From the IMG/VR virus record IMGVR_UViG_3300012352_000355, positions 47,406-111,405 of that record: a stretch of 64,000 nucleotides of DNA; one strand, 5' to 3'. The stretch comes from a virus. Shown here one piece after another: positions 6,367-50,565 of the stretch (its first letter is position 1; each line of letters begins with the position of its first letter). The position numbers were made by a program, and so were the translations under genes. The notes under the pieces were generated by a model. The model did not search any database and was not told where the DNA came from. It saw only the letters and a program-made list of their open reading frames with translations.

Positions 6367-6397
6367 TTGACTTAACTTTAAAATTAAATTATATTTG
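6367..6397 (+). promoter_or_regulatory. Bacteroidota-type sigma70 promoter (-33/-7)
   Basis: TTG(6367-69)-N20-TATATTTG(6390-97), intergenic. Confidence 0.75.
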
Positions 6398-6433
6398 TAT
6401 TAGACCTTAAATTGACCCAAACTATATTCTGAC

Positions 6434-16353: not shown

Positions 16354-18825
16354 ATGTTAAGATACTCACTGTATAAGAAATTTGTAAACGGGGGTGGAGT
16401 AGATCCTGAGGTTGAAAAAATCCAACCAAAAGGAATTACTGCTCCTATACCTACTATGGAAGAGTACCTGTCTAACAATCAGGAATTTAGCAATACAAGT
16501 TCTTATCAAGATGCCTTTCAAATTCCTAACTTATCTCTAACAGGATTTAAGACCTCAGACTCTCCTGAAGGTACGGTAACTGATAAGCAAAAATCATATA
16601 AGCCAGGTACATTTAAAGATGAAGGTAGCTTGCCTACTTTTACTTCTATACTATCTCCGCTTAATCCTTTTGACGTAAATCAAAAAACTCCTGAAGTAGA
16701 ACAAGGTCCTTTGTCTGAAGAAGAAGCTACGATGAGAGGTATCCAAACTTCTCCTATTACTTCCACTCCAAAAGAGCAACCTAGTTTCTGGCAACAGAAT
16801 AGTTCTGCATTAGCAACTTTAGGTTTATTGGGAGTTGACTCAGGGTTTGGATATAATGAAGATCTAAAGAATCAGCAAAAATTAAACGAGTCAATACAAC
16901 AAAGAAAATCTAAGCCTGAGTACTCCTACAATTATATGTATGGTCCCACAACAGGTGGAGGTACAGAATTTCAACCTACAATAAAAGCAGAAATGGGTGC
17001 AAAAATAAACAAACGTTATGCTAGTGAAGGCATGAACGATGTAGAAATTGAAGGTGGAGAATTTATCCAACTTCCTAATCTAGATACTGAAATGGCTGAA
17101 GGGCCTTCTCACGAGAATGGAGGTATTCCTACAAACTTGCCTAATGAGACTCGTGTCTATTCTAACAATTTAAAGCCAGAAGGATCTAAGAAAACTTTTG
17201 CACAGATCGCTAAAAACTACGATATCACTTCATATAAGAAAACTTTAGATAATCCCTTTGCTAAACAAGTAGATAAGGATACTGCAAGTATAATGATGAA
17301 GAGAAACCAGAAAATTCTGGATGATTTGTTTGAAGATCAACAGATGATGAATGGTAACTCTAATGGAGAACTAGAAGCAAAGAGAGGAGCTAGTATTAAC
17401 AACCCAGGATTTAAAGCTCTTCCAGGTTACGTACAAGCTAAGATTACTGCTAACATGGCAGAGGGAGCTAAATATAAAATTCCACAGGGAGTAACAGTTA
17501 AGCAAGCAGGTGATCCTTCGATTCAGGTAGGTGATTACGTTATGGGCGCTAATAATAAAGTCCAGAAAGTCACTGCTGCAAACAAGAAGACTACTTTAGG
17601 AGAATACAATAAAGGCTATGATGATTTGTCTTCTACGTTAAGTAGACCTGAATTTGACAAAGTTAAGGAGGCTATGTACACTAAGTACAAAGAAAAGAAT
17701 CCTAGTACTACTGTATCCAAAGATCAGTTTATTAAAAACTTCATGGATGCTCAGAAGCAGATCTATACTATTAGGGAAGCTGCTAAAAATAATCCAAACC
17801 TTGATATTAAGACTGAAGACTTAGACAGAACTGCTGGTGGTATGAAGAATAAGGTTTATAATCAAATTGCAAAGCAATTAGGTTTTAATCCTTTGACTGA
17901 AGATCAAACAAAAATGTTTCAACAGTCTTACTTGGATCTTGCAGATCTCCAGAATAATCCTGAATTTAAAGAAACTCTGTCTGACTTTGATCTGACTCCT
18001 ACAGGAATGACAGATGACGTATATCTAGGAAAACCAATTTCAAAAGCAGATGCAATCTTCGGTAACACTACTATAGGACAAGCAGTAAGAGCAAAAAGTA
18101 GAAGTGACGCTCAGGACTATACTTACGAAGATGTTCCCCTAGAGACAAAAGACATTGAGTTTAATCAACCAGGAACTGCACCAAGGGGAACTTATACTCC
18201 TGGAAAGTTTCCTTTGTATCAAGCTATTCCTGAAGCAATGGGACTTGCTCAATCACAACAAATTTATCCTTATGCTATTCCTGAAATAGATGCCCCTTAT
18301 CTTCGTCCTCAAACTTTGAATATTCAAAGTGAGTTACAAAACATAGATAACATGGGTACAGCAGCTATCCGATCTGGTGCAGATCCTTTAGATGTTTATA
18401 TTGCAGGAATTGATGCTAAACAAAAAGCTTTTCAAACTAAACAAAACTATGATGCAGAAGGTAGGTCTAGAGCAGATATAGCAAATGCACAGGCTTCCTT
18501 TAGTGCAGATCAGTTCAATGCTCAAGCATTTGATCGTGTATACAATAACCTAGTAGGTCAAGCAAGAGATGCTCAGTCTGCAGAAAAACAAGCATCTATT
18601 GCAAACATGATAACTAAGAAAGGTTTGTTTGATCAGAGTGAATCTAGAAAAGCTGCATTTATTAATAACCTTGTTCCTTCATTTAACACTACCTCAAAGG
18701 GTCAGATGGATGTGGCAGAAGAACAGTTGCCATTTTATTTTAATGCTTTCAACAACTATGTAGATGCTGAAGACACTAAAAAGAAAACAGCTAAAAAAGG
18801 AATGTATAAAAAACCTAAATATTAA
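16354..18825 (+). CDS. Virion cargo/core protein
   Basis: 823 aa, no Cys seen; VEIEGGE...GPSHENGG motif of crAss-like internal proteins; position before the large cargo genes. Confidence 0.6.
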   Translation: MLRYSLYKKFVNGGGVDPEVEKIQPKGITAPIPTMEEYLSNNQEFSNTSSYQDAFQIPNLSLTGFKTSDSPEGTVTDKQKSYKPGTFKDEGSLPTFTSILSPLNPFDVNQKTPEVEQGPLSEEEATMRGIQTSPITSTPKEQPSFWQQNSSALATLGLLGVDSGFGYNEDLKNQQKLNESIQQRKSKPEYSYNYMYGPTTGGGTEFQPTIKAEMGAKINKRYASEGMNDVEIEGGEFIQLPNLDTEMAEGPSHENGGIPTNLPNETRVYSNNLKPEGSKKTFAQIAKNYDITSYKKTLDNPFAKQVDKDTASIMMKRNQKILDDLFEDQQMMNGNSNGELEAKRGASINNPGFKALPGYVQAKITANMAEGAKYKIPQGVTVKQAGDPSIQVGDYVMGANNKVQKVTAANKKTTLGEYNKGYDDLSSTLSRPEFDKVKEAMYTKYKEKNPSTTVSKDQFIKNFMDAQKQIYTIREAAKNNPNLDIKTEDLDRTAGGMKNKVYNQIAKQLGFNPLTEDQTKMFQQSYLDLADLQNNPEFKETLSDFDLTPTGMTDDVYLGKPISKADAIFGNTTIGQAVRAKSRSDAQDYTYEDVPLETKDIEFNQPGTAPRGTYTPGKFPLYQAIPEAMGLAQSQQIYPYAIPEIDAPYLRPQTLNIQSELQNIDNMGTAAIRSGADPLDVYIAGIDAKQKAFQTKQNYDAEGRSRADIANAQASFSADQFNAQAFDRVYNNLVGQARDAQSAEKQASIANMITKKGLFDQSESRKAAFINNLVPSFNTTSKGQMDVAEEQLPFYFNAFNNYVDAEDTKKKTAKKGMYKKPKY

Positions 18826-18828
18826 ACC

Positions 18829-20541
18829 ATGCCAATTTCAGCACAACATACCAAATTCGTTTATCCAGACTACATTGATCCTTTACCAGCAGATGACTTA
18901 ATCAAGTTAGCTGTTAAGAAGCAGGAGATGTTTGACGAGGGTAGATCTAAAGTACAACAAAGCATTGACGCTTATGGTAAGATTAGAAACTCTTTGGTTA
19001 GAGACGTAGACAAAGAGTACTTTGACAAAAACATGAATAACATGGTCAAAGCAATTAACCAAAATGCAGGACTAGACTTTTCTATTAAAGGAAATGTAGA
19101 TGCAGTACTTAATATAGGAAGACCCCTAGAGAATGATGCCACTCTTCTTACAGCAGTAGACTCTGCAAAAACTTATAATAGTATGATGGAAGAGTATAGA
19201 AAATTGGACACTAAGTACAAGAGTCCAGTTAACGACTACTTCTTTTTTCAGGATATAGCTAAGTGGAAAAACAACGGAGATGTTAATAGTAAACTTAACT
19301 ACCAAGCCTACAAACCTTATCAAGAGGGCACAGGTAAAAAGTATGGAGAAGTTCTTACTAAGATTAAACCTAATATTGAAACTCGTTTTGAGTTTACACC
19401 AGATGGAAGACGTATACAAAAAACTGTGATAAGTAGTGTGGATCAAGGTCGTATTAGAGACGCTTACATGTCCTCGTTAACACCTGCAGAACTTGAACAG
19501 TTGCAGATGGATGCTACCTACAAGTATATGAATTCTAACCAAGATGCAGCTAAGCAACAGTATCTAGGTCACATAAATGAAACACTACAACTTAGTCAAG
19601 CACAGATCGAAGACTTAGAAGGAAAGAAAGCAATTGCTAAACAAAAAAATATTCCTTCTGATGATCCAAGAATGTTAGATATTGATAGAAGTCTTTCTAA
19701 GGCTTACATGCAAAGAGACGTTCTAAGTCAAAGAGCATCAAGAGGTTTAGGTGAAGTCCCAGACAATGAAGTTATCAACTTTATGCAGGACCAAACTATC
19801 TTTGATGCAAGTAATGCTTACGCTTACCAGCAAGTAGAGAAAGATCTAGATGTAGATCAGTATGCTCTTAAAGCCTATGAGTCTAACTTGAGGGTCCAAG
19901 AAGAGGTAACTCTTGATAGACTAGGACTAAGTACTAAAGCAAAAGAAGGTAAGGTTCCTTTGCCTCCTGGAAGCTTTGAGGTAGATGGTTCTTTTATGGG
20001 TGATACTGAAAGCGTAACAGGAGAAGGAAAGACTATGACCCTTAAGAATGATCTTTTGGCTGGAGTAGGAACTAATGATACTCAGAAGCAAGCACAGCTT
20101 ATGGTAGCCCTTAAGAAGTTATTGTCTAGAGGAGTAGATCAGTCAGGTAAAGACATTCCTATTACTGTCAAAGACGCATTGCTTAGGTCAGTACTAAGTG
20201 GTACCTGGAATGAACAAGATGCTAAAGTAATTAAAGCTACTTTTGGAGACAACGCTAAGTACGAAAAGACCCTTAAAAACTTGAAGAGTATTGCTACTAG
20301 TCTATATGATATACAAGACAGAAATGGTAATATTGTAGACATAAGTCAGTTGAATGCAAGAGACGCTAACATGGGATCAGGTTATACCTTAGTACCTAAA
20401 GAAGCTTCAAAAGCAGAAGAATACTTTGTTACTGATGCTGGTGGGTTTGGATTTAAATACGAGTTAGGCGAGTTAGAAAATCTAGACGCAATGACTTTAT
20501 TTAACCTACAAGATATCAGAAGAATTAAACCGCCCAAATAA
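18829..20541 (+). CDS. Virion cargo protein
   Basis: 570 aa, helical, no Cys seen; N-terminal YIDPLP...KQEMFD pattern; synteny. Confidence 0.55.
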   Translation: MPISAQHTKFVYPDYIDPLPADDLIKLAVKKQEMFDEGRSKVQQSIDAYGKIRNSLVRDVDKEYFDKNMNNMVKAINQNAGLDFSIKGNVDAVLNIGRPLENDATLLTAVDSAKTYNSMMEEYRKLDTKYKSPVNDYFFFQDIAKWKNNGDVNSKLNYQAYKPYQEGTGKKYGEVLTKIKPNIETRFEFTPDGRRIQKTVISSVDQGRIRDAYMSSLTPAELEQLQMDATYKYMNSNQDAAKQQYLGHINETLQLSQAQIEDLEGKKAIAKQKNIPSDDPRMLDIDRSLSKAYMQRDVLSQRASRGLGEVPDNEVINFMQDQTIFDASNAYAYQQVEKDLDVDQYALKAYESNLRVQEEVTLDRLGLSTKAKEGKVPLPPGSFEVDGSFMGDTESVTGEGKTMTLKNDLLAGVGTNDTQKQAQLMVALKKLLSRGVDQSGKDIPITVKDALLRSVLSGTWNEQDAKVIKATFGDNAKYEKTLKNLKSIATSLYDIQDRNGNIVDISQLNARDANMGSGYTLVPKEASKAEEYFVTDAGGFGFKYELGELENLDAMTLFNLQDIRRIKPPK

Positions 20542-23500: not shown

Positions 23501-26500
23501 TAAAGCAAACAAAGATCATATAAACTCAGACCTCTACACTACAGTAACTGAGAATCTTGCTGACAGTAACAAGAGAGCACAAGAAGCCATCGCTATAGCA
23601 GAACCTGAAGTACGTACTCAAGTACTTACAAACTTCTTAGACAAGGCAGTAGCTTTTAAGACTAATTACGCATATAACGTTGATCTAGTAAACAAAATAT
23701 TTCCATTAGTAGAATATACCCAAGAGGAGTTAGATCAGGCAAGAGAAGCGCTTATACAGAGAAGGGCTCAAAAGAAATCTCAACAGATACTAGATACACA
23801 AGTAGTAGAAGGAGGAGAGACAGAGAAAGAAGAACAAGCGGAATTTAGTAATATTGCTAATCAAGTTGCAAGTACTCCTGAAGTAGTGAGTGAGTCAGGA
23901 GAGTCTAATAGAGACGAGATGTATCTTGCTGGTTATAATCGTATGATTGACAGAGCAAAGGCTAGTCCTCTAGGATTTGCTAAGGCATTTGAGTTAGCAG
24001 TTAAGAACAGGTTGTCTTCAGTGTTTACTCAAAATACTAAAGACTACAATACTTTAATTAATGCATTAGATGATCTCTTAGATAAAAAGATTACTCCAGA
24101 AGAATTTAGAAATATTTACTTAAATGTTTGGAGAGAGAACAAAGGAAACGAGAATAAACAAAATGCAGTTATATTCCTTAAGTTTATTGCAGATAGGTAT
24201 TTCCTTAACGACATGCCTGCAGATAGAGTAAGTAGTAGAACTACTCCCACTGCACCTATCACTCCAACTCCTGCTCCAGTTACTCCTAGTCCTGCTAAAA
24301 CAACAACTAGTAAAAATGCCCCTACTCCTAAGCAAGGAACCAAGGTAGATAAACTAAACAACGAAGTAACTCAACAAGTACAAGCAAGACTTACCCAACT
24401 AGAATCCTTGGCTTCTCCATTAAGAACAGTTGCAGTAGAATACAATGCAGCTAATCAGAAGTCAACAGATCCTGCTACACTACGTAATGTAGCTTTAATA
24501 GAATACATAGCTACTACTCCAGGTGTAAGAATGAGAGTAATGAATAGAAAGTTGTTTCTCCTTAATCATATTGTAGAAAACAACGAAACTATTAACACAG
24601 AAGCAGAAGCTTTAGTTGAGTTTAACAAGATTGCTGATCATATCTCAGAAAACAATATGTCTTTAGATACTTGGAATAGTTTATCTGATGAAGATCTAGA
24701 CTTGTTATTAGCTCCATTAGATCTCATTCTAGGTAAAAATTTCTTTGACAAAGGCAACTTAAGATTCTTCTTTACTTCTGTAGATGCAAAGTTTAAAGGA
24801 GGTAAAGTATATCCAGTAGGTACAGGTTTGTTTGTCGATCCTCAAGTTATTATCACAGCAGTAGACGAAGATGGAAATACTATATTGAAAGATGGATTGC
24901 CACTCGAATTAAACTTTCCTAGGATAGAAGCACAGGGTTTTAGAATTAGCGAAAGAGTAGAAAATGATTACGAAGAGTTAGGAGGAGATAAAGAAAACCT
25001 AAGAAGTAAAAACCAAGCTAACTACGAAAGGATGTTGGCTATGACTAAGCTAATTAAAGCTGCAAACTCTTTTGCTGATACTTTACCTAGTCTAGACTTC
25101 GATCACAGTGTATCTTCTGGTGTAATGCTTGAAGCTCCTATAACTAGCTACAAGGTTGGTAATGAGGTAGAGGTAGATAATGTACAGAAAGCAGGTATCG
25201 CAGAATTTAAAATTGCAGAGGATCCTAGGGAACCTATATTTGGTAAAAACTATTCTTTCCGTAAAGGTCGTGTTTATTTTAATAACAACGGTAATCCTAC
25301 CTTGTTAACAAACAACAAGATAGATCCACAAGAAGCAGATGCTCTTGCTGACTTGTATTTCTCGGAGGAGAATCCATACTTCAGTAGTCCTAAAGAGGCA
25401 GAAGAATATTTGTTTAACTTGATTAACCAAGTAAATAAGAAAGATCGTTTACACTTCTTTGTGAATGAGGAGTATCCTGGTCCAGGTCAGTTCCCTGTAA
25501 TCATTGTAAAATCTACAGGTACTGCTACAGGCTTTAAAAATGAAGTGCTAACAAAAGAAGAATTTGCTAAGGAATTAAAGAATCATTACTACAAAGCAAG
25601 TTTAGCTCTAATGAGAAGTGGAGAACCTATTATGAGATTTAAACCCTCTGGCATGGTTACTCAGTCTTATTCACAGTATATAAAAGACACTCATAACTTC
25701 CCAATTCAAGACGGTCAAGTAGCTATGCCAGTAAACAAGGTAATCTACTTAGCTCCAGAATCTTTAGAAAAGCAGTTTCCTGAAATTACAGGAACAGCTC
25801 CTAAAGCTCCTGAGGTACCAAAAACTCCTACGCCTTCACCTACTGCGCCTAAACCTAGTATGGTAGTAGCAGGAGTACAGAATAAAGTTAAGAACCTTTC
25901 TATACTTCCCTTTGATAGAGCATTATCTGCGGCACAGAAAAGTCCAGGTGCTGACTACTTAGTTGATCCTATGCAAAAAGTAGGAGAAGAGTTCTATAAC
26001 ATAGCACTAAACACTGTTCTAGCTGATCCTACTAAACTTACTGATATCTACTATTTTAAGTTGGTAAGAGAACCAGGAGTACCAGCTGTTAGTATTGAGA
26101 GAAGGAAATATGATCCTGAAGATGCTGATGCTGTTTACGCTTCACACTTTTTAGGCAGAGTCAACGTAGAAGGTAGAGAAAAACCTGTTACAGTTATTCT
26201 TGTTGATCCTAATGTTCCTTTTGGAAAGACTTATGGTACCCCAAGAATAATGGCTACTATAGATCTTGCCAATCCTCAGGAAGCTGTTATTCAAACCTAT
26301 CAGCAGTTTACTAATCCTGCACCTGTACCTACTCCAGCACCTGTTACTCCTGCTCCTACTAAACGTTCTATGAGTGCTTTAAATGCTATGCGTGTAGGTG
26401 AAGTTGAGAAAGTAGAACAAGCAAGCGATTCTCCCTTCAGTGATGCTTTGTTAGACGAAGATGAGTTGAGAGCACAAGCAAAAGAATCTAAAGAGGCTTG

Positions 26501-26528
26501 TAAAGGAGACTTAGACGATTTAGCTTAA
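20550..26528 (+). CDS. Large ejected cargo protein with hydrophobic (channel-forming?) segments
   Basis: 1992 aa with Gly/Ala-rich hydrophobic stretches, an EALEEE motif, coiled coils and three Pro/Thr linkers; directly upstream of the vRNAP gene. Confidence 0.65.
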   Translation: MPNKYQANLGPLSKSLAGAAPGDMRERFNTLIPLDVQNSFQQKAELAVLEQDRLDQQKGLQEQRNLKLNSLKSLYRQAMPNPQFADRAASSVFDRIENASSKQELNDIYSEIESIREKAQDNSFLFDGLETVVGLAQGLSSFGESFFRGKESLIDQKKKTLTQANADLTDISGSIIPQDLFSQGIAAIKEAEFTNYGKQTINQFGSPKGLYDALSKARMGTKAAYNNFDDFVKPRLEDAFATKGHYLYREGEEAPQFQQEARTAFANPTKDQTAANFKHDLEKESLSSVKSAIMGDLQKELLKPRDAVDYNPDNIKYLRNSLSIVDQRLNSLDQVYKVDKYASDAEKTLFGEGSSARRSVIKAFGDTLPGKLIQDKLFNASDFSQAVFSEAFYKPDIITYDKDNRPVMSNQFMYTKADGSRAFNWGSIPEAGGAMVAQMIPIIAGGALVEGVVSGVAAAELGAISSGAAGISRAYDALNKVSALGNELKLADRAATFASVAANTIPHFVEQEKRWGGDYVKRGLAGGIVEATAEAIGFPDVGALKMRPVTTTLASSAMRAAKLELNFGQRLGSYLNNTYQFAKLGAKQNAVEALEEEISLLGNAIVQNGIMPEEYALRDKEQVTAKSLTDTLVESFAAGLIYSFGTVGAGGYAYTRPENLQRQSNWEAANNPELFIAKLQDLKDKGKISDQDFVQGIAKVRTLEGTMKSLVGFDNIRDLKTLNLDKDEQFALFTNVLRRNELLEIDLDSMSDTEKEAFANYKAGNILAEESRKRQRLIRKQLAEFDRNPEPTKEEQKERERLTELYAKLKRGDIQYINKGSISEEDKKYFYEAGLLTDTDLQVSQEDIDKEIDSINKSILKTQKRIDRYANLTNSEKNEIIRKVYDEKIEAVLKVDSAADLVESRINLQKDLDYLRLKGEEEVPGQVEHKERLLDAYGKQMNDLVNERDEFGQNKVEQKVSNFDANTLEQAGDLFGIQEAYEYAKANKDHINSDLYTTVTENLADSNKRAQEAIAIAEPEVRTQVLTNFLDKAVAFKTNYAYNVDLVNKIFPLVEYTQEELDQAREALIQRRAQKKSQQILDTQVVEGGETEKEEQAEFSNIANQVASTPEVVSESGESNRDEMYLAGYNRMIDRAKASPLGFAKAFELAVKNRLSSVFTQNTKDYNTLINALDDLLDKKITPEEFRNIYLNVWRENKGNENKQNAVIFLKFIADRYFLNDMPADRVSSRTTPTAPITPTPAPVTPSPAKTTTSKNAPTPKQGTKVDKLNNEVTQQVQARLTQLESLASPLRTVAVEYNAANQKSTDPATLRNVALIEYIATTPGVRMRVMNRKLFLLNHIVENNETINTEAEALVEFNKIADHISENNMSLDTWNSLSDEDLDLLLAPLDLILGKNFFDKGNLRFFFTSVDAKFKGGKVYPVGTGLFVDPQVIITAVDEDGNTILKDGLPLELNFPRIEAQGFRISERVENDYEELGGDKENLRSKNQANYERMLAMTKLIKAANSFADTLPSLDFDHSVSSGVMLEAPITSYKVGNEVEVDNVQKAGIAEFKIAEDPREPIFGKNYSFRKGRVYFNNNGNPTLLTNNKIDPQEADALADLYFSEENPYFSSPKEAEEYLFNLINQVNKKDRLHFFVNEEYPGPGQFPVIIVKSTGTATGFKNEVLTKEEFAKELKNHYYKASLALMRSGEPIMRFKPSGMVTQSYSQYIKDTHNFPIQDGQVAMPVNKVIYLAPESLEKQFPEITGTAPKAPEVPKTPTPSPTAPKPSMVVAGVQNKVKNLSILPFDRALSAAQKSPGADYLVDPMQKVGEEFYNIALNTVLADPTKLTDIYYFKLVREPGVPAVSIERRKYDPEDADAVYASHFLGRVNVEGREKPVTVILVDPNVPFGKTYGTPRIMATIDLANPQEAVIQTYQQFTNPAPVPTPAPVTPAPTKRSMSALNAMRVGEVEKVEQASDSPFSDALLDEDELRAQAKESKEACKGDLDDLA

Positions 26529-26533
26529 CATAA

Positions 26534-26566
26534 TTGAAGCATACTTTCAATAACGTATTATATTTG
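26534..26566 (+). promoter_or_regulatory. Bacteroidota-type promoter upstream of the vRNAP gene
   Basis: TTG(26534-36)-N22-TATATTTG(26559-66). Confidence 0.65.
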
Positions 26567-26613
26567 TAATACACCCAGTAAACATTAATCTATAGTATTA
26601 ACTAACATAAGAA

Positions 26614-29600
26614 ATGATTTGTCCAAATTTAAGTGATAATAAAGTACGTGCGGAGTTCACAAACCTTACTAATCTTGTAGGAGAAGACTTCGCTTACTTT
26701 GTATGGAATAGGAATGGTGGCTATCCTCTAGACAAGAAGGTAGTTACAGTAAAGGGGAAAGAAACAGTAATTGATAATCCTTTATACAATCATTTCTTAG
26801 GCTCTTACAATAACGTAAAGCAAGCAACTCTTGCTACTAGTATTTATTACAGTAAGAAGTTACAGAAGAGTAATCCTGGATTTGATAATCTTCCTATACA
26901 AGAACAGGCAAACATTATCCATGACTTTGTACAAGAGAATGAAACTTTAGAAAAAGCTTCTGAAAGAGTAATGAGATTCATTGCTCAAGGATTTAAAGCA
27001 GAACGTGTATTAGATGAATCTATTAGAAGAGTAGCCTTTGACGAAGCACGTAAGATAGCTAACGGAAGACAATTACTTGACTCTTATGTTTGGTTTAAGA
27101 CTTCGCCTCTTTCTTTGTTTGTAGATTTTGCAAACATGCAGAACAAGGAGGAAAGTTCTTTTGCTACTTGGACTAAGTCAGCAATTACTTTATACAAAGG
27201 ATCTGATTACTCAGACCTTTATCACGAAGGTTGGCACGAATTTACACAGCGATTCATGACTAAGGAACAAAGAATTGCTTTGTACCAGTCAGTTAAATCA
27301 AGACCATCTACTGCTCTTATTAATGGTGTTCAAGTTCCTTACTATGCTTTGACTAGTCGTCAAATAGAAGAAGTACTTGCAGAAGAGTTTAGGTCTTTTT
27401 CTTTGAATAAGTCTAATCCTGAAGTAGTTGTTCCTAGAATAGAAGCTCCTGTAAGAAACTTGTTTCAAAAGATCTGGGATTTCTTAACAAGTATATTTAA
27501 TGCTTCACCTCAAGAGATTGCTTCTAGACCTGCAGAAGAAGTACAAGACGGTATAACTGCTTTGTTTGAAAAACTCTACGCAGGTAAAATATATGAGTAC
27601 ACGCCTAGTGTCACTAACATTAGTGAGAAAGTATTAAATAGAAACAAATCTTTTCAGATTAACTATGTAGCTAAAGACGGAAGAACAATTCCATTTGAGT
27701 ATAATGCTTTAGAAGCTGCAGAGATCTTTAGTGCTATTGACTTCTTCCTAAGTAAGGCAATGGATGACTTTAAGACAAGTGATGGTACTAAGATTAAGTT
27801 AGAAATGTCTTTCTTGTTGAACAAAGATCTTAAGCAAGTATACTTGCCTCAACTATATGAAAGTGCTAGAAACTCTATGTTGCAGTATATCAGTGCATTA
27901 GAGGAAGAAGCAACTACTGCTGACGAGGCTACTGCAGAAGTACTTAAGCTACGTGTTAAAAACTTAAAAGGATTAGTAGTAAGAACTGCAGCAAACGATG
28001 GTTGGGCTACTGTAGTAGAGAATCATCAGAGAGCATCTAAGGGTGGAGTATTTTACTTAGAAGAGAATAAGAAGTCTTACGATGTAGACAACCGAATAGA
28101 TGATCAAGATGAATCAGAGTTAAGGAGGGACAGTAGAAGTTTTGCTAACGCAGAAGACGTAGACCCTATGTCTCTAGCTTCTCCTGAGATTCTCCAGTTA
28201 ATTAAGATTCTTCCTGGAACATACTATAACTCTTTAGGAGAAATGGTTACTGCTACAGGTCCTTCATTTGGATTACCTCAGTCAGGTGATTTCTTAAGAA
28301 ATAAAAACTTAGTCTTAAGTAAAGTAAGTGGGTCAATTTCTTACGAAGAGGCTATACAAAGATTAGAGAATACATTAGATATTGCTCCTCAGTTAAGACA
28401 ATTAATTGATAGACTTCCCCCTACTGATACTTCTTTAAGTCTTTCTCAGCTCGCACTTAAATCTCAGTTTATGCAGTTTGCTGCAATGCCTACGGTATAT
28501 CCTTACGAGATCAAATCTTTGGTGCAAAATGAATTGTCTGCTGTAACTAAGAAGAAAGAAAAACGTCTGGAAACAAAAGCATTCTTAAACAATACTCTTT
28601 CTCAAGACAAACTAATAGAGTTCTTTGATCAAGACTTTGTAAGTAATAGACTACGTAAGTATAGATTAATAGATCCTAAAGAAATAGATCTAGCAGTTTA
28701 TGATAGGGCTAGTGTACTATCCGACTATAGAGCTTACACAGAGAATGGATTCACTTCTGATCAAGTTGCTTTTGAATTCTTAAATGATGCCTTTGGTATC
28801 AACTTAATTGCAGACAAGAATCCTAACTTATTGTTTAATAAGCGTGGAGAATTACAGTTAGGAGTTAATCCTATCTTTACTACTACAAACCTAAGAAACC
28901 TTGTCAAGATAGCTAACAATGCTTTGTTTAAGCTGAAGCTTCTTAGCCTTATAGATTCTTCTGGGGAAAATCTTAACACCCCTACCATCTCTTATAATCC
29001 ACTACTTGCTCTTTCTTCTGATATATCTAAACAGTTGAAAGAACAGATTAAAGAACTTAAGTCGGGAGAGAAGAACAAAGTAATTAAAGAGTACTTTGAA
29101 AAACATTTTAAGGCAGCTACTCTCGACAATGAAAGAACTTCTGCTTTTTCTACTATAGAAAAACTTTATAATATCTCTAACTCTGCTTCTTACTTAAACC
29201 CAGAAGGAAACTTAGAGTACGCAGTAAGAGAGTGGAATCACTTGTTAGACTCAGCATCTAAGATTAATAATGTAAAAAACATCTACGAACTAGAAGGACA
29301 CTTAAACCCAGAGTCTAATAACTTCCTTGAGTATAGTTTAGTTATGAATGCTATGTTCCGTAAAGACGATGGAACTAGAAGGACTACTAACTCAGGTGAA
29401 GGAGTATACTTAGAGGTTTTAAACATGTCAGGTTTTACTATTGGTAAAACTAGAGGAGATAAAACAACTAACTTATCTGGTGACGGAAAACTCTTACAAG
29501 ACTTCCTTTCCTTTATTCAAGACGCTACCATAGAAAACATGAGGGTAGGAGCAAAGTCTAGTTCTTTTGCTACACGTTTGTCTGGAAACAGAGGAGAAAG

Positions 29601-32600
29601 GGAATATTTTAAATATGATCAGTATCAGTTCAAGAATCAAGCTGTAGTATCTTCTGACTTTATCAGACAGATGCAGAACTACTTGAACTTTGAGGCTATG
29701 CGTATGTTTGACGACAGAGCTAAATCTACGAGAAAAGAAAAAGCTGGATCTGAGTTTATCATACTAGACACTATACTTCCACAAGACATTAAAGATAAAG
29801 TAAAGGAAGCAGTTAATGAGGCTCCTAACAAAGAGGCTCTTAAGTTGACTCTTAGGGGTATGTTTGGTTTGAGTGCTAATAGTCTCTATGGTCCATTTAA
29901 AGATGCTGTTACAGCATACTTTAAGAGTTCTGCTGATGTATTGAAAGTTTCTTTTAATGAAATCTTAAGTAAGGGAGAGTCTAAGAATCTTGCAAAAGAA
30001 TTTTATCGTATCCACAAAAAGCAAGATGGGACTGCCTATACACCAGAAGAGATAGATTCTGTTCTTCTTTACTTTACTACTAATTATTTTGCTCACCAAG
30101 TAGAAGTAATGCACTTGTTAATCGGTGATCCTTCTAATTATAAGATTAAAAATAATGAATGGAGAGAAGCATTCAAACGTCTTGGTCCTGCAATTTCTCC
30201 AGGTAAACAACCTAGATTAGACCTACAAGACACTAACTCTTGGAATACAGATCCATCTCTTAGTAGAGGACTTGAAGAAGTACAAAGAGGAAAAGGAAAA
30301 GGTAGACCCTATGATACTAATTTAAACTACGTACAGTATGAGGATATCAAAACCTTTGAGTATTTAGATGAAGTTGCTAAGTCTTCTATCAAAGAAAGTA
30401 TTAGACAAAACTATTTAGATGCTTTGATAGCAGCTAAGGGTCCTTTGAGTCCAGAGGAACTTGCAAGAGAGTCTGCTCAAATAGATTCAAATACTGATGC
30501 AGTACTAGTACAAGACGAAGAAGCGAATGCTCAGGCTTACGCAGGCTTAGACTTTATAAGATACTACTTAAATTCTATTGGAGAATGGCTTCCAGAACTA
30601 GAAGAAGCTTATAAACATGAGGTAAAGGTATTACAGGCAATTAAAAACTATAGACAATCTAACTCTACTGAAGATCTTGCTAAAGTAAAAGAGTTGGTTA
30701 GACAGAGTAATCTTGGAATACTGACTTCACTTAAACTAGGATACTATGGATCACCTACAGACTACAACAAGTACAATGTACTAGGTAAGTATTCTGTGTT
30801 CCCATTAAGTCCTTCTATGGTATTTGATACAGACTTAGAGAATCTTATGTTTGACTACCTAGACAAAGGAGTAGACATGTCTACTTTCTCTAGTGGTAAT
30901 AAGATGTCTCTTCCTGTAAACGAAATGGCTTTTTATAATTCTGTTGAGTTGAATGGTAAAAAGATTCCAGTACCTAATGCAAATGGAGCTTTAGAAGTAA
31001 CTAAGGTAGATCCTAATCTTATTGTAAGACTTCCAATAGACGGTCTCCGTAGACAACAGTATATTGCTCCTAAATTTAAGGGAGAAGCAACTTTGTCTAC
31101 TCAGATGGTTAAGTTAATTTTCTCTAACTTTTTTGTATCAGGTAAGATTAACCCTAAGTATGCACACATTCAAGATAAGATAGAAGCTTTACAAGAGGCG
31201 TTTATTAATAACATTAAAACTATTGTAGAGGTAGAGAAAGCAAAAATCTATTCTAAGATTGGAGCAACTGTTAACGCAGAAGGAAAATTAACTAGCATTA
31301 ACACAAAAGACTTTACTAACTGGTTACATAGAGAGTTTGATAAGAAGGAAGTACCTAGTTCTGTCTATGACTTTATTAGACCTTCTAATAACAATCAGTT
31401 TGTATTTTCATTGGATGCAGGAGTACAAAGATCTCTCATAGACCAAATCATCTCTAGTGCTTTGTCTAAGCGTGTATTGAAACCTAAGATGTTTGGTGAG
31501 GCTTATATTCAATTGGCTTCTTCAGGATTTAACAAACTAGGTACTCGTAAACAAAAGCCTACTGTTGATGAGATCAAGACTATATCAAAAGAATTCAATG
31601 TAAGCGGTTTAAGAGACTATCGCATTGAGGATGGTGTAACTCAACCTGCTGATGTTTTGATTCCATTTAACGCAAAGAAACATGCTCCCTTGCTTAATTT
31701 AGTTTGGAACGGAGAAGTTATCGGAACACTAGATAGACTTAATGACGCACTAGATGATCCTCAGTGGGTTAAGACACACTCAGCTAAGATAACTCTTGTA
31801 GGTGTACGTATTCCTGTACAAGGATTAAACTCTATGGAGTACTTTAGAGTACGTAGATTCTTAGCAACTGTAGGTGGTCCTGTAATGGTTGTACCTCCTT
31901 CAATCGTAACTAAGTCTGGATCTGACTTTGACATAGATAAATTGTTTATGTACGAGCCTGAACTTGATGAGAATGGAGAGTTAATAGTTAACGCTGAACT
32001 AGCAAGTGCAGAATACAGAGCTAAGATTATTGAAAACATCCTAGACAAAAACACTTACTTAAAAGGTAAGGCACTTTTTCTAGATAACTTGTTTGATTCA
32101 GAAAGCTTTAGGGAAGCAGGCTTAGTATCTAAAGAGATTGATTCTATTAAGAAAATGATCTCTGATCTAAAGGGTATTAAGACTTCTGGAGAAGAAGACG
32201 ACATAGCTTACTTTAAAGAGAACATAGGTCCTTTGAACATGAAGTTAGGTATTGCTATTGAAAGATTTAAAACTTTACGTAACCAAGATCCTAATGTTGT
32301 TCAGTTTCTAGAAAACTTAGCACAGTACAAAGAAGTTCTTTCTGAGATGGAAAACATTTCAGAGAAACTGATAAAGGGTTCAGCTTCTAACAATATGATC
32401 TCGGTAATATCTGGTGTATTGTCTGAAGCTTCTATTTACTCAGAGTTTACAAAACCCAACGTTAATAAGATTCTTCCTGAGATTGCTAGAGAGTATCAAG
32501 CACTGAAGGGCAGAGATAGTAAGATTGACTCTAGTGCAATGTTCTTGATTGAGACTTCAATAAGAATCTTTACAGAAAACAACTTGGGTAAGAAGTCTTT

Positions 32601-34989
32601 AGGTGTAGATGCAAAGACAAACGCTTTACATAAATTGTTCCAACAAGTAGGTTTAAGATTTGCTTCTAATCCACAGAATATAGACATTAATTCTTTCTAC
32701 CTACTTAAGTCAAACAAGAATCCTGACACAGGTGAGATTGAGTTGGGGGGTCTTTACGATGCTGATGGAGTTAACTTAATCTCTGATGTAATCAACGAGT
32801 TTATTAATGGTCACGTAGATATCGAGAAGGAAGACTGGATTAACTTCTTTAACGCTGATAGAGAACGTACTCCTTTAATTCTTCAAATGGTACTTAACGG
32901 TACTCCTGTAAAGGACGCTATCTTACTAGTAAACCAACCTATCATTCAACACTATATTAGATCTAGTAAGATTACTAAAGTAGGAAAAGCATTGGGTCAA
33001 AAGTCAGCAAGCTTATTTAAAGACTATATTACCCCTGCAATGAATTACTTAGACATTACTCCAGTAACTGTAGATGGTATAGTAGACGAGGCTGCTACTG
33101 TAGAAAAAGTACTTAGCATGCCTTCTATCAATAAGGCATTGTCTGCAGAAAACTTTAACAAAGAAAACTTTGCTCCTAATCCTTACGTAAGACGATTTGC
33201 TTATGATAAAATTAAAGCAAATAGAAATACTCCTGAAGGTCAATCTGCACTAGAAGCTCAGTTAGCATTTGCTGCTCAGTATTATGTTGTTAAAGAACAG
33301 AATAAAGTCTTGTTAGAGTTAACTAGTAATATTGACTTTAACACTTCTTCATACCGTATCAACACAGAGTTTTATGCAACTACTCAAAACATTAAAGTAG
33401 CTGCTCCTAACTTTGCAGCTGAAGGGTTTAACAGAATACTAGAATCAAGTGTAGTAGCTCCTTTTAATATTCTTGAGGACACTGAAAAGCTTATTGACCA
33501 GGTTTGGGACTTCTTCTCTATAGAGGAGATTAAAGAACACCTATACAACGTTAAACAATCTTACGGTAAATACTGGGGTAGAGATGAATCTGTTACCAAT
33601 TACAATCAGTTGGTTAACTCTTTTATGTTGTCTTTTATTCAGAACATTCCAAGCCTTAAGTCTTTTCAAGATAACTATGGTATTAGTTCTGGCTTATTTG
33701 ATTTAAAATCTGCTAATAACTTAAGAACTAGATTCGATAAACTGTTTTCAAGTACAGAAGACAAGACTCTTAAGAGATTTGCCGAGAACAACTTAATCTT
33801 AAACAACTTTAGTCCTATAAGTATACCTGATAGTAATTATTTCTATCCTGGTATGATTACAAATGAAAAGGACGTAGATACAGTTAATGCTGCTCAAAAA
33901 GCTTTCTCTGATGGTTTGAATCATCCTAACCCAGAAGTATCTAAGTTCTTTAGGGACTTAGCTAATGGTGTACTTGTATCTCAAGGTTTTAATATTAAGT
34001 ATCGCTCAATCCAAAACTTTATTCCTTTAGAGGCAAAGAGCGACTTAATGATAGAGTTGTCTATTGCTCTTAAGAAAATTAAGATAGGCTTAAGTAAGCC
34101 AGTAGAAGAGATGACAGAAAAAGACAGTGAGGACGCTATGGCATTTATGAGTTTGCTTGAAAGTACTACCTCTATGCATGCTAATCTTTATTGGCCTTCT
34201 AAGGATAACGATTTCATTCCTACTGCTTATATGAAAGCCTTTCCTAACTTTAAAGAAGAGGAAGCAAAGGCTGTTACTACTGAGAAGAAAAACTCAAGAG
34301 TAACAAACCAAGATGACTTGGACGAAGCAAAACTTTATGCTCAGCAGTTTGACAATGATATTCCTTCTATGGATGAACTAGACGAAGAACAATTAATAAC
34401 TAGGAGACTAATAGCTAAAGGCAAAACTGTTCCTGCTAAAACTCCTGCAACTTCTGTATCTACTAATGTTAATCCTGCAAGTAATAAGATAAACATCTAT
34501 GCAGGAGGTAAAGGAGAGAATGCTGAGTTAAGTAATTTTGCAGTAAGGCCTTTTTCTGAAACTTGGGATCTTTCACCACTAGGTATGGACTCGGAAACGT
34601 TAACTTTTAATACGGTAGAGGGAGCATTCCAGGCTACTAAGATTTTGTATAGTACCGATCTAAAAAATTATGATTTGTTACCACAGTTTCAAAAATTATC
34701 TGGAGCACAAGCAAAAGCATTAGGTCAAAAAATTAAAGGATTGGATACAGAAGCATGGGATTCAAACTCTTCTGTAGTAATGAAAGATTTAATTAAAAAG
34801 TCTTTTGAACAAAATCCAGATGCTCTTGCTAAACTTATTGCCACAGGTAATGCCACCCTTACTCACACACAAGCTAAACGTAAGTGGGCTAAAGAATTTC
34901 CTAGAATCCTGATGGAAGTAAGGGCTGAGTTAAGAGACAATAACCTAGAAGGATTTGATTTTGAAGTAACTAAGTGTATCGTAGATTGA
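26614..34989 (+). CDS. Virion-packaged double-psi-barrel RNA polymerase with N-terminal zincin and C-terminal NADAR domain
   Basis: Catalytic GSDFDIDK (DFDID starts at 31924) preceded by RIPVQG; HEGWH...EEVLAE zincin motif at 27223; C-terminal LSNF...TVEGAFQATK...AKALG...WD...VMK...FEQNP...LIATG...LMEVR. Confidence 0.88.
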   Translation: MICPNLSDNKVRAEFTNLTNLVGEDFAYFVWNRNGGYPLDKKVVTVKGKETVIDNPLYNHFLGSYNNVKQATLATSIYYSKKLQKSNPGFDNLPIQEQANIIHDFVQENETLEKASERVMRFIAQGFKAERVLDESIRRVAFDEARKIANGRQLLDSYVWFKTSPLSLFVDFANMQNKEESSFATWTKSAITLYKGSDYSDLYHEGWHEFTQRFMTKEQRIALYQSVKSRPSTALINGVQVPYYALTSRQIEEVLAEEFRSFSLNKSNPEVVVPRIEAPVRNLFQKIWDFLTSIFNASPQEIASRPAEEVQDGITALFEKLYAGKIYEYTPSVTNISEKVLNRNKSFQINYVAKDGRTIPFEYNALEAAEIFSAIDFFLSKAMDDFKTSDGTKIKLEMSFLLNKDLKQVYLPQLYESARNSMLQYISALEEEATTADEATAEVLKLRVKNLKGLVVRTAANDGWATVVENHQRASKGGVFYLEENKKSYDVDNRIDDQDESELRRDSRSFANAEDVDPMSLASPEILQLIKILPGTYYNSLGEMVTATGPSFGLPQSGDFLRNKNLVLSKVSGSISYEEAIQRLENTLDIAPQLRQLIDRLPPTDTSLSLSQLALKSQFMQFAAMPTVYPYEIKSLVQNELSAVTKKKEKRLETKAFLNNTLSQDKLIEFFDQDFVSNRLRKYRLIDPKEIDLAVYDRASVLSDYRAYTENGFTSDQVAFEFLNDAFGINLIADKNPNLLFNKRGELQLGVNPIFTTTNLRNLVKIANNALFKLKLLSLIDSSGENLNTPTISYNPLLALSSDISKQLKEQIKELKSGEKNKVIKEYFEKHFKAATLDNERTSAFSTIEKLYNISNSASYLNPEGNLEYAVREWNHLLDSASKINNVKNIYELEGHLNPESNNFLEYSLVMNAMFRKDDGTRRTTNSGEGVYLEVLNMSGFTIGKTRGDKTTNLSGDGKLLQDFLSFIQDATIENMRVGAKSSSFATRLSGNRGEREYFKYDQYQFKNQAVVSSDFIRQMQNYLNFEAMRMFDDRAKSTRKEKAGSEFIILDTILPQDIKDKVKEAVNEAPNKEALKLTLRGMFGLSANSLYGPFKDAVTAYFKSSADVLKVSFNEILSKGESKNLAKEFYRIHKKQDGTAYTPEEIDSVLLYFTTNYFAHQVEVMHLLIGDPSNYKIKNNEWREAFKRLGPAISPGKQPRLDLQDTNSWNTDPSLSRGLEEVQRGKGKGRPYDTNLNYVQYEDIKTFEYLDEVAKSSIKESIRQNYLDALIAAKGPLSPEELARESAQIDSNTDAVLVQDEEANAQAYAGLDFIRYYLNSIGEWLPELEEAYKHEVKVLQAIKNYRQSNSTEDLAKVKELVRQSNLGILTSLKLGYYGSPTDYNKYNVLGKYSVFPLSPSMVFDTDLENLMFDYLDKGVDMSTFSSGNKMSLPVNEMAFYNSVELNGKKIPVPNANGALEVTKVDPNLIVRLPIDGLRRQQYIAPKFKGEATLSTQMVKLIFSNFFVSGKINPKYAHIQDKIEALQEAFINNIKTIVEVEKAKIYSKIGATVNAEGKLTSINTKDFTNWLHREFDKKEVPSSVYDFIRPSNNNQFVFSLDAGVQRSLIDQIISSALSKRVLKPKMFGEAYIQLASSGFNKLGTRKQKPTVDEIKTISKEFNVSGLRDYRIEDGVTQPADVLIPFNAKKHAPLLNLVWNGEVIGTLDRLNDALDDPQWVKTHSAKITLVGVRIPVQGLNSMEYFRVRRFLATVGGPVMVVPPSIVTKSGSDFDIDKLFMYEPELDENGELIVNAELASAEYRAKIIENILDKNTYLKGKALFLDNLFDSESFREAGLVSKEIDSIKKMISDLKGIKTSGEEDDIAYFKENIGPLNMKLGIAIERFKTLRNQDPNVVQFLENLAQYKEVLSEMENISEKLIKGSASNNMISVISGVLSEASIYSEFTKPNVNKILPEIAREYQALKGRDSKIDSSAMFLIETSIRIFTENNLGKKSLGVDAKTNALHKLFQQVGLRFASNPQNIDINSFYLLKSNKNPDTGEIELGGLYDADGVNLISDVINEFINGHVDIEKEDWINFFNADRERTPLILQMVLNGTPVKDAILLVNQPIIQHYIRSSKITKVGKALGQKSASLFKDYITPAMNYLDITPVTVDGIVDEAATVEKVLSMPSINKALSAENFNKENFAPNPYVRRFAYDKIKANRNTPEGQSALEAQLAFAAQYYVVKEQNKVLLELTSNIDFNTSSYRINTEFYATTQNIKVAAPNFAAEGFNRILESSVVAPFNILEDTEKLIDQVWDFFSIEEIKEHLYNVKQSYGKYWGRDESVTNYNQLVNSFMLSFIQNIPSLKSFQDNYGISSGLFDLKSANNLRTRFDKLFSSTEDKTLKRFAENNLILNNFSPISIPDSNYFYPGMITNEKDVDTVNAAQKAFSDGLNHPNPEVSKFFRDLANGVLVSQGFNIKYRSIQNFIPLEAKSDLMIELSIALKKIKIGLSKPVEEMTEKDSEDAMAFMSLLESTTSMHANLYWPSKDNDFIPTAYMKAFPNFKEEEAKAVTTEKKNSRVTNQDDLDEAKLYAQQFDNDIPSMDELDEEQLITRRLIAKGKTVPAKTPATSVSTNVNPASNKINIYAGGKGENAELSNFAVRPFSETWDLSPLGMDSETLTFNTVEGAFQATKILYSTDLKNYDLLPQFQKLSGAQAKALGQKIKGLDTEAWDSNSSVVMKDLIKKSFEQNPDALAKLIATGNATLTHTQAKRKWAKEFPRILMEVRAELRDNNLEGFDFEVTKCIVD

Positions 34990-34998
34990 TAATACACT

Positions 34999-35006
34999 TA
35001 TATTTG
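34999..35006 (+). promoter_or_regulatory. -7 promoter element
   Basis: TATATTTG in a short intergenic gap; no well-spaced TTG upstream. Confidence 0.55.
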
Positions 35007-35036
35007 TATTAGTTAAAATAAAAAAAGTAAACAAAG

Positions 35037-38000
35037 ATGCCAAACGGTTGTGTAATAAAATATCCTAATCCCGTAACTGGGATGAATCAAACTTCAGTAC
35101 TTGCCTACACTCTTTCTCAAATGGGGTACAGCACTGAAGAATCGATAAACTTAGTCAAAAGAGGCAGTACCTATTCTAAGAAGAATGGGTACAATGCCTG
35201 GCCTAAGCCTATTAACAGACCTGAAGCACGCTTTGGTAACTTTATAGAAATAGACTCAGACAATCTTGTAGCTAATTTAGGACTAGACTCTGTACTTAAA
35301 CCTTCACAGGTTAGTTATATGAGAGCTGCTCAAGATTTGTTTGAAGATGTACAGGTAAGGGTGGATGCTCCTATTAACTTAAAACTGTTAATGGAATTAG
35401 GAAACTATGTTAAGAAAGGAGGAGAAGCTTCTCTTAAGATAGAAGTAGTTAATCCTGAAGCACCATTAATACAAAGGATGTATAAAGTATATCCTGTTCC
35501 TGCTACTCCACTTAACCGTGAGTATTTATTTAGTTTCATTGAGACAGAAATATTTAGCAAGAACGTATCTATTGGAAAAGAAACAAGACTTGATTTCTTA
35601 AAGCCTTATATAGATTTCTCAGAGCCTGATATCTATGATACAATGGCTAAAATGCTAAACGATTCTCAGACACCTGCATACGAAAAGTATTTGATTAAGA
35701 AACTACTTCCTATGATGGACTTAGTTCCGAGTATTACTTTTGACTTCTTTACAGGCTCAGACATTCTTCAGGTAGAAAAAATTCCTGCAGGACAATACAA
35801 TAGAGAGTTTAATAATATAAAATTAAACGTATTTGGACTTAAGAATGGGGATATGTCTAGTGCTAGGAGACTTATTCTACACGAAGTACTTCACTCTGTA
35901 CTTTCTTCTGCTATTGACAATCCTATTAGCGAGGTAGACAAGAAACTAGTCAATTCTTTAAAGCCAGTATTAGCTTATTACAGGCAGAAATATTCTAGCG
36001 AAAAGTTTACAAATGAGTATTACGGTTTACAAGATTTACATGAGTTCGTATCTGAGTTCTTTACTAATCCTGAGTTTAGAGACTTACTAGAGTCTAACGA
36101 TAGTAACTGGTTCTTAAAGACAATTGATGCTATCTGGAAATTCTTTACAGGCAAACTTCTATTAAACAAGAACGTAAATACTGTAGAGAACATAGAACAA
36201 ATTCTAGAAGATATCTTTAACGATATTATATACTCTCAAGAAATCAATACGTCTCTTACCTATACTAATACTTCGAAGTTTGAATCTCCTCTAAGCTTCA
36301 ATCAAATGCTTGAGATAGATAAGTTTACTGAGAACAACTCTGAACTTTTATCTGAATTCTCGGCTAACCTAGATAGATTACTAGCAGAAGATAACTTGCT
36401 TAACTGGTCTAAGATTATAGATCAAGCAGAGTTCTTAGGAGTAAACGTAAATAGTGTACTAAGAACAAAAGATACTTTCGTAGAGATATCTCCTGCTGAA
36501 GCAAAAGAATCATTTAAATCTATGGTTACATTCTTCCACGAGACTGCTAAGTATCTAAGAAGTATACGTAACTCTCTTGATAAGTTAGCTGCAGATCCTA
36601 ACATAACAGCTGACCAAGTATTCAGACAGGCTTATCATGCTAAGGAACTAGGAGAACAATACATAAACTTTGTAGAGAAGTACAGAGAAGTAATGGGTAA
36701 CATAGGTATAGATACTATCCTAGGAATCCAACTTCTTAATATAAAAAGTACTGCAGACTCTTTAAAGGAAGCGTACTTGAATAATGCAACTGAGGCTTTG
36801 GCTATTAAATTAGCAGATGAGTTTGCTCCACAAACTAAAGATGCTCAGAAACGTATCCAAGAAAACATTGAAAGATTTAAAGTTAGTTTGGCGAGTGCAC
36901 AAAGCCTAGGTAACGCTAAACTTATAAAGCTTACTGAAGATAGAATCAAGAACGAAGAGGCTCGCTTACAGAGTCTTGCTACAAAGTCTAATATCATTAC
37001 TGCTCTTAAGGGACAGATTAAAGACATAGGTAACTTCTCTTTATTCTTAGAGTCAGCAGGTCTCTCAGGAAACGTAATTACTGGTACAGTAGGTGGTATG
37101 ATTGCTAACCAATTTGATTCTGCTAATGTTAAAGCACAATCTATGGAGGTTAAACTTAAAAGATTAGCTGATGAGTTACAAAACCACTTGAAGAGTAAGG
37201 GTGTAGGAGTAAACACTTCTTTTGATTTTGAGAATGTTTTCGGAAGATTTCTTAAGAAAACTGAAGTAGTTGAAATGAAGAATGGTAAGATTGCTAAGAG
37301 AGACACTCTAGTCCTACTTAGTGAGATGGATGAGGTTCGCTACAACAACGACTTGATTAAACTAAAACAAGAATTAAGAGATCTCAAACAAACTAAAGTA
37401 CAAGACTCTGCCGTAAAAGATCTTATTAAAGCTAAGGAAGCACAGATAAGAAACTTTAAACAACAGTACGAAGAACAGCCTTACCAAGAAGTCTATTACC
37501 AAATCCAGAATATGTTAAGCTCAGAAGCAAGAGAAGCTAGAGACTTAATACTTCAAGAGATGGATAAGATTCAAGTAGGTAGTTTGAATGAAGAGAACTC
37601 TGAAGAACAGTTAGATAAACTAGAAGATCTCAAAGAAGATTTAGATCGTTTGGAGTCTGATTACGATAAAAACAAAAACTTAAAAGACGAAGAAGGTTTA
37701 AGAATCGCAGCTAATATAAGAGAGTGGAAGAGGAGTAGGACTGCTGCTCAACTCTACACCTACAATATCACTAAAGAAAATCAGGAACTCTTTGATAGCC
37801 AACTTATTGCTAAGAAGAACGCTTACGATAAAGCTGTATCAGACTACGAACAGTCTTTGTCTGAGAAAGCAGATCCAGAAACTCTAGATTATAAAAAACA
37901 AACTGCAGAGTATTATAGAAAACAGTTTGAACTTTGGAAAGCTAACAACTGTGTTAGGAAGATTAGTCCAGAATTCTACAAAAATAGAAAGCAAATAACT

Positions 38001-50541: not shown

Positions 50542-50565
50542 TAATCTTTTGGCATGCAACAGGTA

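Follow-up and report, generated by a model that had tools for sequence, protein, structure and literature searches.

Introduction

In cyanopodophage A4 (Anabaena phage A-4L), cryo-electron microscopy of the pre-ejectosome shows a disulfide inside the capsid between Cys1715 of gp27 and Cys5 of gp26 (PNAS 2025, PMC12002296). Here we describe a similar placement of lone cysteines in the RNA polymerase (RNAP) cargo block of a crAss-like phage, located in a stretch of 64,000 nucleotides (the window) that forms a portion of the 111-kb IMG/VR virus record IMGVR_UViG_3300012352_000355. The block encodes, downstream of two smaller proteins of 823 and 570 amino acids (aa), a 1992-aa upstream giant (U), a 2791-aa virion-type RNA polymerase (vRNAP; V) and a 1932-aa downstream giant (D), and four of its five cysteine (Cys) residues sit at the termini by which U, V and D face one another. 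Across the order Crassvirales these terminal cysteines are conserved, and they come in pairs that are strictly coupled to gene boundaries.

In the A-4L genome, gp27 (1717 aa) and gp26 (1114 aa) are the products of adjacent genes, with C1715 and C5 as their respective sole cysteines. The likeness to the window lies in these large ejection proteins from adjacent genes and in the position of their cysteines, a lone C-terminal Cys (−3) facing Cys5 in A4, and C1984 (−9) facing C3 and C2788 (−4) facing C5 in the window. A4, in which the disulfide was seen in the particle, belongs to Saffermanviridae and has one pair only and no RNAP. BLAST of gp27 and gp26 against U, V and D returned no similarity (best E 0.06), and the relation is one of analogy, not of family membership. 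The A4 study gives the bond as a structural detail, with no comparative rule and no split or fused genes (PMC12002296). It is nevertheless the single published precedent for the chemistry, and it corrects the preliminary description of the window, which knew of no such system.

Near-total suppression of Cys is likewise seen in the giant virion RNAP of the N4-like phages (Schitoviridae) and in the ejection proteins that accompany it; DEV gp71-73 and N4 gp50-52 are Cys-free, for which the authors give passage through the envelope as the reason (PMC11445570). In these phages, however, Cys is missing even at the termini (0.00075% in homologues of the vRNAP gp71), whereas the window keeps four invariant junction cysteines, and the N4-like and crass RNAP folds are unrelated (PMC13434306).

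Among crAss-like phages, the counterparts of the block in phi14:2 and crAss001 are virion proteins, which some phages encode as fusions (bioRxiv 10.1101/2020.03.07.982082; PMC10172136). Virions of crAss001 contain disulfides, discussed in the atlas of this phage for the tail and gp57 only, and the cargo must partly unfold on exit (PMC10172136). The report of the phi14:2 vRNAP structure contains zero mentions of cysteine or disulfide (bioRxiv 10.1101/2020.03.07.982082), a 2026 paper describes crassvirus ejection proteins as structurally unresolved (PMC13434306), and full-text literature searches returned no account of terminal cysteines in crassvirus cargo.

Cysteines of the cargo block

By direct count from the list of open reading frames (ORFs), the five proteins of the block contain 5 Cys in 8,108 aa, where ~122 would be predicted at the rate of the non-cargo ORFs (178 Cys in 11,838 aa, or 1.50%, in the 42 other window ORFs that reach 100 aa). 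Four of the five lie within 3–9 residues of the facing termini of U, V and D (Table 1); under uniform placement, four or more of the five would lie 9 residues or fewer from these four ends with P = 1.9e-9. The outer ends of the trio, which are the N-terminus of U and the C-terminus of D, are without Cys. The junction between the 570-aa protein and U, with Cys on neither side, constitutes a natural negative control, and the counterparts of the 823-aa protein in relatives are also Cys-free, termini included. This map, with its Cys-free outer ends, had been given in the preliminary description; our count reproduced every ORF and every Cys, and the many additional internal cysteines that would have spoken against it were not seen, the total staying at 5.

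The start codons of U, V and D are the first after the upstream stops, and the N-terminal 30–40 residues of V are conserved as protein in relatives, with M1, C3, P4, F15, L18 and G23 among the invariant positions. Such conserved heads show that the terminal Cys positions are not start-codon artefacts, an explanation that we rejected on these two grounds. The tail of U, ACKGDLDD[IL]A, is kept in relatives at 70% identity, and the Cys codons differ synonymously (TGT/TGC) among relatives.

The fifth cysteine, C972 of D, sits in a conserved NN.V[RK]KI motif and is kept only in relatives of at least ~69% identity, its place being taken by Ala, Val or Thr at 46% identity or below. We read it from this distribution as a young, lineage-specific substitution that stands outside the Cys rule.

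Conservation of the terminal cysteines

A search of 5.8 billion proteins yielded 120 homologues of V, ranging from 98% down to 23% identity and from 2,500 to 4,900 aa in length. About 110 of the 120 carry one Cys at residues 3–7 and another in the last 1–9 residues, and ~100 have no further Cys at all; where the N-terminal Cys is missing, the homologue is either a truncated call or fused at its N-terminus to a U-like protein. C3 and C2788 are invariant columns across 31 aligned vRNAPs with a mean column identity of 17%, and in 12 close loci every terminal Cys is kept while V ranges from 2,791 to 4,093 aa. The terminal cysteines on which the preliminary description had rested its proposal are thus retained in homologues, both of them in ~110 of the 120 vRNAPs.

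In tblastn, V gave weak but significant matches (22–28% identity, E down to 9e-18) to RNAP genes of gut crassviruses, namely those of crAss001, crAss002 and many members of the cr series. The homologue of D is the 1421-aa protein that phi14:2 encodes downstream of its RNAP (phmmer E 1.3e-14), the only match obtained by phmmer between the five cargo proteins and reference crassvirus proteins; V had no phmmer match among the sequences of the Protein Data Bank (PDB). Together with the HExxH motif and the DFDxD motif, the latter named for crAss vRNAPs (bioRxiv 10.1101/2020.03.07.982082), these matches make the block correspond to phi14:2 g065-g067 and crAss001 gp47/gp50/gp49. The order 823-570-U-V-D parallels gp45-gp46-gp47 of crAss001, and of the features that mark a vRNAP block of Crassvirales, flanking giants, a zincin-like HExxH region and two smaller cargo genes upstream were found. 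U, V and D thus make up the RNAP cargo block of a crAss-like phage; packing in the head and ejection in a partly unfolded state are probable, presence in the virion having been shown for the proteins of phi14:2 and crAss001 only.

The cultured phages obey the same rule. In phi14:2, the Cys of U (1797 aa) is the last residue, V (2180 aa) has C3 and C2179 only, and D (1421 aa) has C3 only; in crAss001, U (gp47) has only C2339 (−3), V (gp50) has C5, C1334 and C2404 (−9), and D (gp49) has only C5. Both blocks share with the window a homologous RNAP, a zincin-like region, a homologous downstream protein and an identical Cys grammar. The window differs in having the zincin region and a NADAR domain within V, and its U/V boundary falls on the opposite side of that region. 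Adherence extends to crAss002, cr1_1, cr50_1 and Flavobacterium phage Fpv1, and to crAss001 and DAC15 even with their U gene on the opposite strand, which identifies the rule as a feature of the proteins rather than a DNA-level junction motif. For crAss002 gp33 (locus L099, 13088-13190), the start was probably annotated 32 codons upstream of the true one, since the 5' extension contains a TAnnTTTG-like motif with an MSC start behind it.

For chance, an annotation artefact or a junction motif in the DNA we found no support, and we regard the probability of such an origin as negligible: the window P value, the invariance of the Cys columns at 17% mean identity, the synonymous variation of the Cys codons and the persistence of the rule when the U gene is inverted all stand against it. 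A DNA junction motif or a read-through polyprotein was also rejected as a separate candidate, given the differing frames of U and V, the promoter-like motifs in the intergenic gaps and the inverted U of crAss001 and DAC15.

Short motifs recur around the terminal cysteines, with D.[LF][LF]N.[IL]GC in U tails and K.C in V tails. A head motif, CPN...EW..L...G..A[YF], is found on V in the window and on D or on split-off proteins in other loci. These conserved local heads and tails suggest specific docking. In one locus (L007, 1476-9017 and the following ORF), V appears broken into 2513 and 285 aa with no Cys at the break, probably through a frameshift or an assembly error rather than a true split.

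Coupling of cysteine pairs to gene boundaries

We surveyed 205 junctions between adjacent low-Cys genes in 93 loci, 80 of them read ORF by ORF in addition to the close ones. Cys was present on both facing termini at 125 junctions and on neither at 78, the latter including 823/570 and 570/U; at the two apparent mismatches, the homologous upstream Cys is present at −19 and −22. There is therefore no true discordance among the 205 junctions (Fisher P = 4e-55, uncorrected for phylogeny). The side overhang past the Cys measures 2–5 residues on the N side and mostly 0–8 on the C side.

Where genes are fused, the pair at the lost junction is lost as well, as the preliminary description had asked to be checked. 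Fourteen U+V fusions (4,269–5,157 aa) have neither an N-terminal nor a junction Cys and keep the C-terminal Cys that faces D; a match of the N-terminal part to U was shown for the fused homologues P0085 and P0027. Reciprocally, the V+D fusions p-crAssphage gp44 and Rudgehvirus RNAP keep only the N-terminal Cys of the U/V pair. Where genes are split, a pair is found at the new junction: in locus L035, the place of the single D of L032 is taken by two proteins that match it with E 4e-118 and 0, one of 583 aa (Cys at −3) and one of 1852 aa (Cys at residue 4). D of L032 has no Cys at the split site, and the unsplit D of L047, L075, L088, L062 and L070 has no internal Cys at all. In L004 and L014, V ends in ...FNNC and is followed by a 328-aa ART-PolyVal protein that starts with MICPN, copying the V head motif, and ends in ...KCRED, keeping the old tail, in the manner of a cassette exchange. 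No Pfam family was found in six split-off proteins.

The boundary itself also moves. Residues ~580–900 of V in L088 and L075 have their match in U, towards its C-terminus, in L033, L027, L030 and L046 (E 1e-16 to 1e-18), and the zincin-like region lies at the start of V in the window and at the C-terminal end of gp47 in crAss001, across the U/V boundary; a profile of V residues 140-340 (matched part 107-339) matches residues 2154-2275 of gp47 with E 2.4e-8. On these alignments, the gene boundary shifts along a homologous thread, and the Cys pair shifts with it. A FastTree phylogeny of the RNAP core places at least 6 changes of the fused or split state and at least 7 of the split-off state, so the coupling is not one inherited event. 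In locus L077 (19234-19824), D is separated from a Cys-tipped split-off protein by a GIY-YIG homing endonuclease gene; gene adjacency can thus be broken by a mobile gene with the Cys rule unchanged.

These patterns bear on what the cysteines might bond to. U and D have one conserved Cys each, so any bond they form is intermolecular, and the both-or-neither pattern argues against homotypic bonds, bonds to third parties and a single metal cluster common to all, as does the persistence of the V/D pair where the U/V pair is lost. Bonding elsewhere, whether between homotypic copies, to portal or capsid proteins or within V as C3-C2788, might be entertained since Cys counts alone assign no partner and crAss001 has several structural disulfides. 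It is nonetheless highly improbable: homotypic or third-party bonds do not predict junctions distributed 125/78/0, U and D have a single Cys each, and an obligatory intramolecular bond in V is excluded by the U+V fusions that retain the C-terminal Cys only. One shared multi-Cys metal cluster was rejected as a candidate because the number of Cys is 2, 4, 6 or 8, tracking the number of gene breaks.

It is also very unlikely that the cysteines serve as free thiols in another role, such as the cysteine switch of a zincin-like protease, a packaging signal or a redox sensor. The HExxH domain does adjoin the U/V boundary in the window and in crAss001, which would suit a switch, but the V/D and split-off junctions follow the same rule far from any HExxH, and one signal per protein fails to explain the two Cys in every middle protein.

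Nature of the proposed link

The arrangement would be explained by a covalent chain. Internal cysteines would have been purged, as in other ejected phage proteins, with one Cys kept at each terminus facing the next protein. The C-terminal tail of one protein would dock on the N-terminal head of the following one, and the docked lone cysteines would then form the intermolecular disulfides C1984-C3 and C2788-C5, each in place of the peptide bond found between these segments where relatives have the genes fused. U, V and D would in this way become a single covalent thread of ~6,700 residues, its side stubs very short. It could be packed and ejected whole, and the reducing cytoplasm of the host would resolve it into separate proteins. 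Judging from the comparative sequence evidence, we consider it reasonably likely that head-to-tail disulfide tethers of this kind join U, V and D. The link would form in the virion and order ejection, and it may also act in stoichiometry and be released by reduction. Joining through C1984-C3 and C2788-C5 was the central proposal of the preliminary description; the part of it that is strongly supported is that facing cysteines behave as pairs, through the 205 junctions, the fusions, the splits, the moving boundary and the U inversion, whereas the disulfide chemistry is inferred.

Several points weigh against a disulfide. Phage proteins are synthesised in a reducing cytoplasm. Genes for thioredoxin, glutaredoxin and DsbA-like thioredoxin-fold proteins were searched for in the 111-kb genome and none was found, which would leave oxidation spontaneous or host-dependent; a search of the phage genome for Erv1/ALR gave no match either, but its control matched nowhere. 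Oxidants are also scarce for phages whose hosts are the strictly anaerobic gut Bacteroides, yet these phages follow the rule just as closely. Extra cysteines without a partner occur (C972 here, C1334 of crAss001 gp50 and 7 internal ones in p-crAssphage gp44), and the 205 junctions are phylogenetically non-independent, the tree needing only ~6–7 changes per architecture state.

Some of these points would be met if the facing tail and head docked non-covalently and the two cysteines completed a bridging metal site, for instance Zn2+ with nearby Asp, Glu or His. Such a site would work under anoxia and would agree with the conservation of the Cys in phages of gut anaerobes and with the failure to find thioredoxin, glutaredoxin or DsbA-like genes in the phage genome; U tails are moreover acidic, as in D.[LF][LF]N.[IL]GC and EDPFKC. 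We nevertheless think it unlikely, with a single Cys on each side, flanking residues that are poorly conserved across clades, and A4 gp27-gp26, the only structurally solved analogue, being a disulfide.

The timing of bond formation could differ as well. The cysteines might be free in the virion and pair only after ejection, in the oxidising periplasm, locking U, V and D into a trans-envelope ejectosome. The junction-coupled pattern fits this timing equally well, and the scarcity of Cys in the ejection proteins of N4-like phages has been explained by their route through the periplasm, where disulfide-forming enzymes reside (PMC11445570). The A4 bond, however, is already formed inside the capsid, and V, as a polymerase, must finish in the reducing cytoplasm, which makes pairing in the periplasm improbable.

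A complex prediction of the C-terminal 250 aa of U with the N-terminal 400 aa of V gave interface scores (ipSAE) of 0.01 and 0.00, which speak neither for nor against the tethers proposed here. The AlphaFold2 model of V residues 1-400 had a mean predicted local distance difference test (pLDDT) of 57.7 and was confident only for residues 1-120, with residues 1-8, including C3, as coil; a Foldseek search of this low-confidence model against the PDB found nothing at E <= 0.001.

Two other ways of using terminal cysteines were rejected. For split inteins or trans-splicing, Pfam scans of the five proteins contained no intein (Hint) family, and cysteines 0–8 residues from the termini leave no room. 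For lipidation of the lipobox or CaaX type, there is no signal peptide, and the Cys is found anywhere between −1 and −9.

No phages of the human gut are more abundant than Crassvirales. The way in which these phages package and deliver several megadaltons of protein, an RNA polymerase among them, is a stated open question (PMC10172136; PMC13434306), which the strict Cys rule makes directly testable in the cultured phages phi14:2 and crAss001. The rule also serves as an annotation aid, marking true termini (as in crAss002 gp33) and identifying members of the injected set. If the disulfide tethers are real, they would explain the free fusing and splitting of these genes, how the stoichiometry and order of ejection could be fixed, and the addition of new injected effector modules such as NADAR and ADP-ribosyltransferase. 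A broader version is possible, although we remain doubtful of it: crassviruses may eject one covalent thread of 6,000–9,000 residues in which gene breaks are healed by disulfides, the Cys-bearing heads and tails acting as a plug-in coupling, so that proteins acquiring them, such as the ART-PolyVal protein of L004 and L014, would be loaded, injected in fixed order and released by reduction. This would give a phage order a general route for shuffling injected anti-defence effectors without gene fusion.

Other features of the block

The coordinates of the genes and motifs of the block are collected in Table 1.

Table 1. Genes, domains and motifs of the cargo block, with positions in the window.
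Feature	Position	Strand	Cysteines, residues or motif	Basis
823-aa cargo-block protein	16354..18825	+	0 Cys; outside the Cys-tipped chain	ORF list and count; weak PHROG 15413 match
570-aa cargo-block protein	18829..20541	+	0 Cys	ORF list and count
U, 1992 aa	20550..26528	+	Sole Cys C1984, 9th residue from the C-terminus (codon 26499-26501, TGT); tail ...KEACKGDLDDLA, then stop
Promoter-like motif between U and V	26558..26571	+	TTATATTTGTAATA	Motif scan
V, 2791-aa virion-type RNA polymerase	26614..34989	+	C3 (26620-26622, MICPN) and C2788 (34975-34977, ...TKCIVD, then stop) only
HExxH zincin-like motif, N-terminal part of V	27223..27237	+	H204, E205, H208	Invariant in 31-sequence alignment
DFDxD catalytic motif of two-barrel RNAP	31924..31938	+	D1771, D1773, D1775 of V	Invariant in 31-sequence alignment
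NADAR domain	34516..34878	+	V residues 2635-2755, before the Cys-bearing C-terminal tail	Pfam PF08719, E 3.5e-11 and 2e-13
Promoter-like motif between V and D, second copy	34998..35011	+	TTATATTTGTATTA	Motif scan
D, 1932 aa	35037..40835	+	C5 faces V (35049-35051, MPNGC); C972 internal (37950-37952)

The NADAR domain of V scores 44.1 bits, above the Pfam gathering cut-off of 35.1, and belongs to the family. In the V of relatives, the same slot is occupied by cpYpsA, DUF7831, ART-PolyVal, AlkB-like (PF13532) or PIF1-type helicase domains, and the C-terminal slot of V is a hot spot of swappable injected effector modules. Polyvalent proteins of phages and conjugative elements are reportedly multi-domain injected effectors with their domains fused on one chain, as Iyer et al. 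are said to have described in 2017. The swappable C-terminal domains of V (NADAR, cpYpsA, DUF7831, ART-PolyVal) resemble these, but some crassvirus modules differ in being separate genes with Cys-tipped ends.

The two promoter-like motifs of Table 1 are of the type TTATATTTGTAWTA, of which the window contains 4 copies where 0.23 are expected. The remaining copies lie at 6389-6402 (+) and 50564-50577 (−), and each of the four stands directly upstream of a gene start. The motif resembles the Bacteroidota promoter consensus, TAnnTTTG, in which case V and D would each own a promoter.

Upstream of the cargo block, a 1683-aa ORF (8434-13485) contains 26 Cys, of which 19 are concentrated between residues 53 and 281 in CC and CxC clusters. 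In contrast to the cargo, this composition suggests a disulfide-rich external tail domain. A basic protein of 190 aa (15501-16073) has Cys as its last residue (...RRRWKC) in addition to C159, and a distant relative (L023) has, at the equivalent position, a 190-aa ORF that also ends in Cys.

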